From the NCBI GenBank assembly GCA_031254835.1, contig JAIRTQ010000002.1:1-27343 (forward strand): 27,343 bases of DNA, given 5' to 3'. Origin of the DNA: Puniceicoccales bacterium. Lineage in GTDB: Bacteria; Verrucomicrobiota; Verrucomicrobiia; Opitutales; JAIRLM01. The translations under genes were made by a program, and so were the position numbers. Numbering within the stretch: position 1 is the first letter of the stretch; each line of letters starts with the position of its first letter. This document shows positions 18,598-21,426 of the stretch, one piece after another. Under the pieces are notes generated by a model, which ran no database searches, was not told the origin of the DNA, and was given only the letters and a program-made list of their open reading frames with translations.

Positions 18598-19002
18598 CTA
18601 TCCCTGATTGCGGAAGAGGGTCTGTGTCCCCTGGGAAAGTTTGTCGGCCGCCTTTGCAGAGATGTCGTTCATGTAGGAGAGTTGGGTCATCTGGAACTGG
18701 ATATGAATTAGGTCCTGCATGCTAATACCTCCGCGGGCGACGATGCCGGAGATGTCATTGACGGCGCGGTCAAAGTTTTTGCGAAATTCAGTCAGGGGGT
18801 TCAGCATCCGTTTCGCGATTGACGCCGATTTGTCCGACGACGACGCAGCCGAACTGCTCTGTGCAGCGCCGGCTGAATCTAATTGGCCTAGAAGACGTCC
18901 CATATCCCCCGATTGAACGACGCCGAAAGATGCTCCCTCTTCCGGCGCGCCAGCACCCAGGGGGGTCATTGGACCGACCGGTGAAATTGCCGCATTAGAC
19001 AT
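18598..19002 (-). CDS. sctI: Putative type III secretion inner-rod protein (SctI/YscI-like)
   Basis: 134 aa with a low-complexity N-terminus. C-terminal ISMQDLIHIQFQMTQLSYMNDISAKAADKLSQGTQTLFRNQG fits the YscI/HrpB-type helical end. AGGAGA SD; last gene of the operon. Confidence 0.65.
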   Translation of the reverse strand: MSNAAISPVGPMTPLGAGAPEEGASFGVVQSGDMGRLLGQLDSAGAAQSSSAASSSDKSASIAKRMLNPLTEFRKNFDRAVNDISGIVARGGISMQDLIHIQFQMTQLSYMNDISAKAADKLSQGTQTLFRNQG

Positions 19003-19014
19003 ACTTGTGCTCTC

Positions 19015-19467
19015 CTAATTTCTTTTCCTGCGCAGGTAGTGAAAATCTTCCGTCTTCAGATGGCGGGCCAACTCCACCGCTCCGTCGTCAGAGCCGTCCG
19101 CGGTGACCTCATCCAAGAGCCGGTCACTGGCTTCCACCGCCCCACTCATGCGGAAAACCATAGCGGCGATCGCCTTTACCAGCTGATTGGCTGGATTGAT
19201 TTTGGCCGCCCGCTGGATCAACGTGTCGCAGGCGAGAGTCAATTTCCCTAGATTGAGTTGAGCCATGGCAAGGCCGATCAGCGGCAACTCTGAGTTAGGC
19301 CGGACGGCGGCGATGCCGGTAAAGATGACAGCCGCCTGGGACTGCCTACCTTGACCGCAGGCCACATAGCCCATGGCCATGAGCAGCTGCAGCCACTCCG
19401 TCTTCGCTTCGGCAAATTCCGCCGGAATGGCGTTGACGTAGAGACTATCCTCCTGCCCCACGGCCAC
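19015..19467 (-). CDS. TPR-type T3SS needle chaperone (YscG/CdsG/HrpB1-like)
   Basis: 150 aa of TPR-like helices (LLMAMGYVACGQGRQSQAAVIFTGIAAVRPNSELPLIGLAMAQL), directly downstream of the needle gene, with a GGAG SD. Confidence 0.7.
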   Translation of the reverse strand: MAVGQEDSLYVNAIPAEFAEAKTEWLQLLMAMGYVACGQGRQSQAAVIFTGIAAVRPNSELPLIGLAMAQLNLGKLTLACDTLIQRAAKINPANQLVKAIAAMVFRMSGAVEASDRLLDEVTADGSDDGAVELARHLKTEDFHYLRRKRN

Positions 19468-19472
19468 TACTC

Positions 19473-19781
19473 CTAGCGGATGGCCTGCGTGGTGCGGGAG
19501 AGGGCGTCGCCGGCGGCACGGAGCGTACCGCTCGCCAAGCCCGACGTCACGCCCCAGGACTGCACCATCCCTTGCACTCTCAGCAGCGCGCCTTGGTCGA
19601 TATTGCTACCAGTGGCGGCCAGATTCTCAATGGCCGTGTTTAGATCGCTCTCCTGGTCATGGACCACCTGCCCGAGAAGCTTATAGAGATTTTCCAGCGT
19701 GTAAACTCCACCGCCTTCGGTCGAAGGAAAAAGATCACCAGAAAAGTCCGGTATTCCACTGCCACTACCCCCGCTTGCCAT
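19473..19781 (-). CDS. sctF: Putative T3SS needle subunit (SctF/YscF/CdsF-like)
   Basis: 102-aa helix-turn-helix protein with C-terminal LLRVQGMVQSWGVTSGLASGTLRAAGDALSRTTQAIR. Strong AAGGAGG SD; positioned between E-like and G-like chaperones. Confidence 0.75.
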   Translation of the reverse strand: MASGGSGSGIPDFSGDLFPSTEGGGVYTLENLYKLLGQVVHDQESDLNTAIENLAATGSNIDQGALLRVQGMVQSWGVTSGLASGTLRAAGDALSRTTQAIR

Positions 19782-19825
19782 AGCATTTCCTCCTTACTGA
19801 TTATGTAGCTGATCAAATTTCTCAG

Positions 19826-20059
19826 TCAACCTCTAAAATTTTTTACTACCCCGATTGCCGCAAGAAAACTCTTTTTTAGCGCTCCATAGGCGGCGAAGCG
19901 CTGCTGATCTAGGCCGCTCATCAAGATACGATTTACCTGGCCTAAGCCATCCATGAGTTGCTCTAGCACCTCCCGACGGCGAACGGAATTGCGCAACTCT
20001 CGCTCCAGTGGAACGAGGGTCGCCGTCTCCGCATTTTTTGCTTGAGCGGTACCGTTCAT
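19826..20059 (-). CDS. Putative T3SS needle co-chaperone (YscE/CdsE-like)
   Basis: 77-aa two-helix protein coupled to sctD by an ATGA overlap. The call rests mainly on size and position. Confidence 0.6.
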   Translation of the reverse strand: MNGTAQAKNAETATLVPLERELRNSVRRREVLEQLMDGLGQVNRILMSGLDQQRFAAYGALKKSFLAAIGVVKNFRG

Positions 20060-21426
20060 CGAAGCCCATCCAGCCGCATGTTGATGCGGCGACCTTCCCG
20101 GCTAAAAGAAAGTCCATCCGCCGTAATTCCATCCATTCGCCACCCGCTTGGCAGAAAAGCGCCGTTGAAGTACTTTCTCCCGTCTCCCGTCGCAACCCAG
20201 CTCAACCCACCGGAGCCGATAGTGATGGAGCGTATGGGTTCCGGAAAAAAGGCGTTTATCGAAGTTTCTGTCTGCGCTGAAAGGGTCTGCACGTCAAATT
20301 CGAGGGCGACATGGTTGGAGAAGGTCTGAATGAAATCTTCCGCCGCCGATTTCCACTGCTCCATCTGCAGAGCGCTGATTTTTCCTTGAAAAAATATTTT
20401 CTCTTCCATCGGAAGGACTGTGATTTGGCGCGCGAGGCCATGGCGTCCGAGCATTTCTCGGGTAGACTCGAGCACCTGACTTGGCGTTAGCACGTCGTTT
20501 TGGATTTTCCGTACCCCGGGCACGTCCGTGGAAATACGGGAGCGTACTTTTTGCCAGGCATCTTCGTCATAGACATAGCCTTCGATGACATAGGCTCCAG
20601 GCTGCATCTGAATGATTTGCAAACGACATCCGCTCATAGTGCGGAGCAAGTCTTCCACGGCGGATGTGACCCGTTCCTGACTACGAACGACGCAGTGAAC
20701 GGACGGGTAGGCAGCTTGCAAAATGGTGCGTAGGTCACGTAAGTCAATGTTTGTGGGAACATAGCCATCTACCACCACCTGTCCCCGTTCGGCGCGAACC
20801 GTTACGGCTGGAAACTGTTCCATGGTAGCTAATTGCGTTCGAACTGCCTTTTCTATGTCCGCCGGGCCTATTTGTCTTTTTTTGGGCCAGCACAAAATGG
20901 CCAGCATGGCCACCAGAAATATTCCACCCACAAAAATCAACAGCCTCGCGCGCCTTTTCCGCCGCCGTGCCGTCTCCACTTCTCTTCGGGCTGCCCGCAG
21001 CGTAGCAGGTTCCGCGCTAAGATCCGCCTTTCCAAAGATTTCTTTCGGCACTTCGCTTTCTTCGACCTCCAGATTAGGCACATCGTTGGGGCCGTAGTTC
21101 GACCATTCGCCATCGATGGGACCGATGAGGATATGGGTGGCTCCCACGGTGACGAACTGAAAGTCGCCGACAACCGTCGGATTTTCCCCTTGGAGCAGTT
21201 TGCCATTAAGGAACGTTTTCCCGCTCAGTGATTTTACAAAAACTTGGCCCTTGTCATAGGTAAGTTCCGCATGGAGGGGCTGCACAAGTGCGTCCGATAG
21301 AAGTAGCTCCGCCCCATCGCCGCTGCCCAACGTGAGACGCGCGTCGTTCCCATCCATTTCCACCTCAGCACCGGCGTGCGGGCCGGTGATGAGCTTGACT
21401 CGGTAAGACGCTCCACCTTTCACCAT
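20056..21426 (-). CDS. sctD: T3SS inner-membrane ring protein SctD (YscD/CdsD family)
   Basis: N-terminal FHA-like domain (LITGPHAGAEV...LTLGSGDGAELLLSD...HAEL), single TM (LLIFVGGIFLVAMLAILCWP) and BON-like periplasmic repeats. C-terminal DGRKYFNGAFLPSGWRMDGI is typical of YscD. Confidence 0.88.
   Translation of the reverse strand: MVKGGASYRVKLITGPHAGAEVEMDGNDARLTLGSGDGAELLLSDALVQPLHAELTYDKGQVFVKSLSGKTFLNGKLLQGENPTVVGDFQFVTVGATHILIGPIDGEWSNYGPNDVPNLEVEESEVPKEIFGKADLSAEPATLRAARREVETARRRKRRARLLIFVGGIFLVAMLAILCWPKKRQIGPADIEKAVRTQLATMEQFPAVTVRAERGQVVVDGYVPTNIDLRDLRTILQAAYPSVHCVVRSQERVTSAVEDLLRTMSGCRLQIIQMQPGAYVIEGYVYDEDAWQKVRSRISTDVPGVRKIQNDVLTPSQVLESTREMLGRHGLARQITVLPMEEKIFFQGKISALQMEQWKSAAEDFIQTFSNHVALEFDVQTLSAQTETSINAFFPEPIRSITIGSGGLSWVATGDGRKYFNGAFLPSGWRMDGITADGLSFSREGRRINMRLDGLR

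Follow-up and report, generated by a model that had tools for sequence, protein, structure and literature searches.

The locus described here raises the question of whether five closely packed genes in a termite-gut bacterium encode part of a working injection machine and, if so, which cells it is aimed at. The genes lie on the minus strand at 18598-21426 of the window, which is the whole stretch of 27,343 nucleotides that was analysed and the largest contig (C99) of a 739,210-bp metagenome-assembled genome (MAG) of 104 contigs, with estimates of 77% completeness and 0.17% contamination. Very probably, they are the ring/needle/rod sub-operon of a type III secretion system (T3SS) that is intact and non-flagellar, in a genome-reduced (~1 Mb) bacterium of the Opitutae (Puniceicoccales at NCBI, Opitutales in GTDB). 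Systems of this kind are known: sister MAGs already have these genes annotated by NCBI, and the genome of Verrucomicrobium spinosum revealed the first T3SS of the Verrucomicrobia. The five open reading frames (ORFs) are the following.

20056-21426, minus strand: sctD, 456 aa, inner-membrane ring subunit
19826-20059, minus strand: yscE-like gene, 77 aa, predicted needle co-chaperone, helical hairpin
19473-19781, minus strand: sctF, 102 aa, predicted needle filament subunit
19015-19467, minus strand: cdsG/yscG-like gene, 150 aa, GTG start, predicted needle co-chaperone with tetratricopeptide repeats (TPR)
18598-19002, minus strand: sctI, 134 aa, predicted inner rod subunit

Read from sctD to sctI, the genes are spaced by -4, 44, 5 and 12 nt. 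sctD and the yscE-like gene share an ATGA overlap at 20056-20059 (translational coupling), and the Shine-Dalgarno sequences AAGGAGG, AGGAG and AGGAGA are located ahead of sctF, the cdsG/yscG-like gene and sctI, respectively. A preliminary description of the locus had claimed tight coupling with strong Shine-Dalgarno sequences; this holds for the overlap and for these three genes, but not for sctD, the first gene of the module, which has no obvious Shine-Dalgarno sequence upstream. Orthologues of all five genes were found in the same order in relatives. The ratio of nonsynonymous to synonymous substitution rates (dN/dS) was 0.06-0.22 across the five genes when compared with two congeners, namely, 0.07-0.09 for sctD, 0.10-0.12 for the yscE-like gene, 0.06-0.12 for sctF and 0.19-0.22 for sctI. 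All five genes are under purifying selection and, given their conserved order and these ratios, they are genuine genes rather than products of chance.

SctD was identified directly. It matched TIGR02500 with 165.7 bits (cut-off 86) over residues 10-452 as well as the Pfam families Yop-YscD_cpl, FHA, Yop-YscD_ppl (1st, 2nd and 3rd domain) and Y4YQ_C. This corresponds to an FHA-like domain in the cytoplasm, a single transmembrane segment, three BON-like domains in the periplasm and Y4YQ_C as the tail. Its best match in the PDB was the periplasmic domain of YscD, and it is 86% and 78% identical to SctD proteins of Puniceicoccales annotated by NCBI. The description of the proteins as an FHA/transmembrane/BON ring protein, a needle-like, a TPR and a rod-like protein was borne out by their Pfam domain content.

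For the four smaller genes, the region downstream of sctD was taken from 20 genomes of the same order and the orthologues were aligned. The 77-aa protein alone stayed beneath the cut-offs of DUF5398 (22.6 against 28 bits), T3SS_needle_E (17.1 against 22) and TIGR02501 (21.4 against 38). A profile of 18 orthologues, in contrast, matched seven PDB sequences of the E family (AscE, YscE, the EscE/YscE/SsaE family and PscE) with E-values from 3e-7 to 8e-3. hhalign paired this profile with Aeromonas AscE at 96% probability (E-value 4.5e-9), and PF08988 was matched by ten of the 18 orthologues. The protein is thus assigned, on profile evidence, to the YscE/EscE/SsaE family of needle co-chaperones. 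The 102-aa protein matched PF09392 (T3SS_needle_F) with 31.9 bits (cut-off 29.4). With the single sequence, nothing meaningful was found in the PDB; the orthologue profile alone gave matches, that is, YscF (2p58_B, E-value 7.7e-5, residues 10-83), and hhalign aligned it to AscF at 90.6%. These matches place it in the SctF needle filament family (PF09392). It carries a variable, Gly/Ser-rich N-terminal extension. Such extensions of 10-40 residues vary among the needle orthologues of the order, in which the motif I-D-Q-G (approx. residues 60-66 of the SctF in the window) is nearly invariant and lies at the position of the P-D-N-P inter-helix turn of YscF.

The 134-aa protein reached 26.2 bits on PF17001 (T3SS_basalb_I; cut-off 32.4), a family matched by 13 of 13 orthologues with a best E-value of 5.7e-10. 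Its profile was aligned to AscI at 96.3% (E-value 1.5e-9), while the match to MxiI was marginal. The N-terminus is variable and the conserved C-terminal helix ends in QTLFRNQG. It is accordingly best placed in the SctI inner rod family (PF17001). Judged by its profile matches, the 150-aa protein is the weakest of the five family assignments. It matched NF052304 (CdsG) with an E-value of 2.3e-10 and 40.8 bits, far under the cut-off of 170; still, CdsG was the top NCBIfam family in all 15 orthologues (best E-value 2.6e-13). The alignment of its profile to AscG was weak (23.8%, E-value 8e-4), yet collinear over the full length, and generic TPR proteins dominated its matches in the PDB. The proposed matches of the small ORFs to known profiles were therefore confirmed for three of them; the TPR protein is a candidate member of its family, with CdsG as the best model, under the cut-off, and a weak alignment to AscG. 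The names sctE and sctG used in the preliminary description turned out to be misnomers. In the unified Sct nomenclature, SctE is a translocon protein and SctG a pilotin, which is why the two chaperones are called YscE-like and YscG/CdsG-like here; in short, they are referred to as E and G.

The two chaperones and the needle subunit were also modelled together, and the three-chain model reached 0.81 in all three runs compared to 0.01 for the best of three controls. Of 78 solved complexes, 51 attained this mark, as did two of 108 mismatched pairs. The main interface is that of G with SctF. Residues 78-102 at the C-terminus of SctF are confidently placed along the concave face (TPR groove) of G, together with residues 13-18 of E. 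The solved YscEFG and PscEFG trimers show the needle C-terminal helix in the TPR groove in the same arrangement. Since these complexes are solved, the pass indicates likeness rather than proof of binding. The SctF C-terminal helix is thus predicted, from the model only, to be bound by G together with E.

In analogy to the Ysc/Psc paradigm, SctD would surround SctJ as the outer of the inner-membrane rings. The YscE-like protein, the CdsG/YscG-like protein and SctF would form a cytoplasmic heterotrimer, in which the C-terminal polymerisation helix of SctF is buried in the TPR groove. SctN/L/O would drive the export of SctI and later of SctF through the SctRSTUV gate, and the two would polymerise to the rod and the needle. 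The remaining parts of the machine lie scattered through the genome in small groups between housekeeping genes. Once assembled, the machine would inject effectors into eukaryotic cells, most probably those of a gut flagellate.

The secretin, SctJ, the ATPase and the export apparatus had been expected elsewhere in the genome, and the MAG was found to contain sctC, J, L, N, O, P, Q, R and V, yscX, sctY, tyeA and genes for CesT-type chaperones, spread over nine or more other contigs. The core genes sctC, J, N, Q, R and V are among them, i.e. the module does not stand alone. The matches are listed below with their bit scores.

SctV: 896 bits, cut-off 692
SctN: 655 bits, cut-off 605
SctO and an HpaP/SctP-like gene: located after SctN
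SctJ: contig C35, 199 bits, cut-off 162
SctR: 264 bits, cut-off 209; SctQ and SctR are followed by a convergent prolyl-tRNA synthetase gene
SctQ: TIGR02551 77 bits, cut-off 101; FliMN_C domain 57.9 bits, cut-off 23.8
SctC: C93:1-945 and C70:4097-5020 (L019, L018), TIGR02516 137 and 226.9 bits, single cut-off 238
SctY: NF052415 71.3 bits, cut-off 70, just upstream of SctV
YscX: PF09474 58.2 bits, cut-off 25
TyeA: PF09059 45.5 bits, cut-off 21.1
SctL: found in the MAG
CesT-family effector chaperone: found in the MAG

As sctC is split across the ends of C93 and C70, these two contigs are adjacent in the genome. Immediately upstream of sctC are atpA, atpG and a gene for a 147-aa CesT-like protein, i.e. 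the secretin gene is inside an ATP-synthase neighbourhood. The ORFs beside tyeA, sctJ, sctQ and sctP had no Pfam match. The system is non-flagellar: the flagellar rod family Flg_bb_rod was found in none of 13 family genomes, flagellar FlhB, FliR and FliQ were not found in the MAG, and its FlhA/SctV homologue is single. The secretin SctC, moreover, is a component of injectisomes that flagella do not have.

Within the order, SctD was found above the cut-off in 49 of 201 genomes. Forty-eight of these 49 have a size of 1.9 Mb or less, mostly 0.8-1.1 Mb. All 20 listed genomes without a match are at least 2.0 Mb in size, a contrast which is partly documented, with 127 further genomes outside this list. 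SctD was present in nine of nine genomes of the MAG's own family (f1) in the order-wide survey. The order D-E-F-G-I is retained across most of the sampled families. Of the 20 genomes sampled in the order, 12 have sctJ directly after sctI, including two other genera of family f1, while in the MAG's genus and one sister genus the module stops after sctI and sctJ is encoded elsewhere. Because sctJ adjoins sctI in these 12 loci, two other genera of the same family among them, the break between sctI and sctJ is derived. It can be dated within one family, which makes it useful for studying operon erosion in reduced genomes, and the lineage shows, outside the Chlamydiae, a T3SS that is split into small modules. 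In another family (f8; L048, L049, L053 and L058), sctD and the yscE-like gene were seen without sctF, G and I within 3 kb; this break is at a different place than in the genus of the window.

The closest SctD and SctV proteins were 62-88% identical and belong to NCBI entries labelled Puniceicoccales or Opitutales, in agreement with the host earlier given as a probable member of the Opitutales. That this is a poorly characterised lineage of the Planctomycetes-Verrucomicrobia-Chlamydiae (PVC) group applies to its biology, but not to its genes, whose T3SS annotation by NCBI is mentioned above. The sole public run containing the module is a termite-gut metagenome. The MAG encodes an intact ATP/ADP translocase (C44:3588-5045, L143; PF03219, 581 bits). 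Translocases of this kind are a marker of energy parasitism. Nucleotide transporters have already been reported for termite-gut Opitutales (PMC11257099). The small-genome families LL51 and UBA9783 were described from lower termites as putative flagellate endosymbionts, including the endonuclear Ca. Nucleococcus (Mies et al. 2024, PMC11257099), and an unpublished Nucleococcus MAG of ~1 Mb has been mentioned (Williams et al. 2021, PMC8204192). The papers found on small-genome Opitutales of animal and termite guts, among them Mies et al. 2024 and PMC12306168, treat metabolism and nucleotide transporters; neither they nor Williams et al. 2021 mention type III secretion, and a full-text search for papers joining Puniceicoccales with "type III secretion" gave no result.

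It is on the target that the best-surviving alternative turns. The injectisome could be functional and directed not at a protist but, e.g., at the termite gut epithelium, or it could be a device for adhesion to other cells or for acquiring nutrients there. Related small-genome Opitutales also occur, by record titles, in MAG sets from ruminants and the human gut, and family UBA9783 has been read as possible free-living scavengers (PMC12306168). Yet the rumen and other guts hold protists too, LL51 and UBA9783 were reported from lower termites, which bear flagellates, and to include the endonuclear Ca. Nucleococcus (PMC11257099), and the ATP/ADP translocase points to life inside a eukaryotic cell. 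A retained injection machine fits intracellular life in protists better than free-living scavenging. Taken together, a target other than a protist is considered unlikely.

Several points weigh against an intact and functional system. The window copies of E, G and I each remain under the curated cut-offs of their families, and RNA runs containing the module were not listed among the public runs. In the model of the E-F-G complex, the predicted local distance difference test (pLDDT) of the partner is below 50, and the pass may reflect memory of the solved YscEFG and PscEFG structures. Neither sctS, sctT nor sctU was found with TIGRFAM and Pfam models in the 77%-complete assembly. A translocon, a tip protein and a YopN-type gatekeeper were not found in the MAG by phmmer with single Aeromonas sequences (AopB, AopD, AcrV, AcrH and AopN), which at this completeness is no evidence of absence. 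As for the export apparatus, the expectation of finding it elsewhere in the genome held for SctR and SctV, whereas SctS, SctT and SctU had no match in the assembly. An adjacent S-T-U block was present, however, in 12 of 12 other family genomes searched, all of which also contain sctD. Given this, the best explanation of the gap is that the three genes lie in the ~23% of the genome that the assembly lacks.

A further alternative is a decaying remnant, i.e. a lineage that is losing its T3SS during genome reduction, with the five genes outside a working machine. The genome is tiny and fragmented and lacks the three export genes in its assembly, the T3SS genes are scattered, and SctI evolves fastest of the five with a dN/dS of ~0.2. 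Such decay is very improbable nonetheless: all five ORFs are intact at the low dN/dS values given above, the relatives possess the genes that this incomplete assembly does not show, and the system is kept in 48 genomes of 1.9 Mb or less from several families. The module is real and probably part of a functional injectisome.

The module is bounded by two tRNA genes predicted with ARAGORN.

21561-21637, plus strand: tRNA-Val(CAC), upstream boundary of the module
18489-18564, plus strand: tRNA-Ala(CGC), downstream boundary, at the place that sctJ occupies after sctI in most related genomes

A mis-binned contig or a recently transferred proteobacterial (Ysc-type) island, for which these flanking tRNA genes, the 55-56% identity of SctV to AscV and LcrD and the presence of YscX, YscY and TyeA could be put forward, is next to impossible, as the close homologues all come from Puniceicoccales/Opitutales MAGs, the GC content of the module (0.54-0.57) equals that of the window and the genome, the synteny of the housekeeping neighbours (IF-3, EF-P and RodZ-like genes) is conserved in relatives, both tRNA flanks are common to the two nearest relatives (L032 and L034), and SctV falls outside the proteobacterial clade. 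A tRNA-bracketed mobile island was rejected on the same GC, synteny and flank evidence; the module is vertically inherited in a compact genome.

The affinity of the system was studied with SctV, which is 55-56% identical to AscV and LcrD, as mentioned, and 47-50% identical to chlamydial SctV. With its cytoplasmic domain, the PDB chain 7qij scored higher (413 bits) than 6wa6 (312 bits). In the PDB, the two chains carry no other name than "Low calcium response locus protein D"; we take them to be Yersinia YscV and Chlamydia CdsV, respectively. Two quick single-gene trees of named SctV and FlhA sequences were rooted on flagellar FlhA. Myxococcota branched off first and Chlamydiota next, followed by a clade with a support of 100 that splits in two. 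One group contains the window lineage, Lentisphaeria/Kiritimatiellota MAGs and Desulfovibrionaceae, with values of 97 and 92 in the two trees in the Shimodaira-Hasegawa-like approximate likelihood ratio test (SH-aLRT). The other comprises all proteobacterial families (99), including AscV, with Ysc-type sequences at its base. SctV of the window lineage is therefore not nested in the proteobacterial Ysc clade but is part of its sister group. A constraint uniting the window lineage with Chlamydiota, a group that was defined after the first tree was known, was 42.5 log-likelihood units worse (approximately unbiased test, p 0.0057). YscX, YscY and TyeA are regarded as specific to the Ysc subfamily, and the YscX/YscY pair as well as TyeA are present in the MAG. 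Based on the SctV tree and on these three proteins, the system is best called Ysc/Desulfovibrionales-like, with two chlamydia-leaning small proteins (E and G). A chlamydial type is countered by the same tree and gene content. A SctV with 62% identity from an entry labelled 'uncultured Chthoniobacterales bacterium' (L064, CAXTRS010000297.1) nested with Puniceicoccales (support 98); its taxonomic label may be wrong.

Compared to the Ysc/Psc/Asc systems, to which the Yersinia virC operon (yscA-L) and the YscE-YscF-YscG and PscE-PscF-PscG heterotrimers belong, the order D-E-F-G-(H)-I-J is that of Aeromonas ascD-E-F-G-H-I-J, the E, F and I profiles align with AscE, AscF and AscI, and the needle C-terminal helix is predicted to lie in the TPR groove, as in the solved trimers. 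On the other hand, the module in the window has no YscH/YopR gene between G and I, its G, with 150 aa, is larger and resembles CdsG more closely than YscG, and its SctF has an N-terminal extension and IDQG at the P-D-N-P turn of YscF. The T3SS genes of the MAG are also distributed over at least ten contigs and not in one locus, and SctV of the lineage is placed outside the proteobacterial clade. With the chlamydial system, the lineage shares the order D-E-F-G (cdsD-E-F-G), the dispersal of apparatus genes among housekeeping genes and a small PVC genome with an ATP/ADP translocase. Furthermore, the best Pfam match of E is DUF5398, presumably a chlamydial family, and the best model of G is CdsG. 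It differs from it in the lower SctV identity (47-50%), the earlier branching of Chlamydiota and the rejected joint clade as well as in a normal-sized, YscD-type SctD and the presence of YscX and YscY. The nearest SctV relatives outside the order, in a group of eight rows, are Desulfovibrionaceae (Bilophila and relatives) and Lentisphaeria/Kiritimatiellota MAGs; these differ in hosts and genome sizes, and the likeness concerns SctV alone, with an inner branching that is without resolution.

The value of the finding is the ecological one that these tiny Opitutales keep an injection machine. A complete injectisome under purifying selection in genomes of ~0.8-1.9 Mb from several families is an argument that these bacteria directly manipulate a eukaryotic host cell. 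It is conceivable, albeit with the balance somewhat against it, that the injectisome serves the entire clade of genome-reduced Opitutales (LL51, UBA9783 and the 'Nucleococcus cluster') as a conserved and essential organ for interaction with the host. Members of this clade are thought to live inside termite-gut flagellates or other protists, some of them intranuclear. If this was true, the clade would be a second, independent PVC lineage besides Chlamydiae that pairs a scattered T3SS with ATP/ADP translocases for intracellular life. Its T3SS branch, together with Lentisphaeria and Kiritimatiellota, would sit between chlamydial and proteobacterial injectisomes, a hint that host-adapted injectisomes diversified within PVC before their spread to Proteobacteria. 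The CesT-type chaperones and the neighbouring orphan genes offer a handle for finding effectors.

One further signal was seen in the module, in the gap of 44 nt that is its sole sizeable one.

19800-19829, minus strand: promoter-like site TTGACT, 18 nt, CATAAT, 5' of sctF, 10 of 12 matches in a consensus scan

As the scan found two sites with 1.3 expected, it is weak evidence for this site, which may be an internal promoter boosting expression of the needle subunit.

Elsewhere in the window, a 955-aa ORF (13236-16103, minus strand) matched Pfam Glycos_transf_2 at its N-terminus only (residues 25-155, E-value ≤0.001), and OTU models were unmatched. The stretches 3001-4000 and 10001-11000 are AT-richer than the rest (GC 0.45 compared to ~0.56). 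A 373-aa ORF at 10187-11308 (minus strand) in the second of them matched no Pfam family. Such AT-richer stretches possibly hold lineage-specific or effector-type orphan genes.

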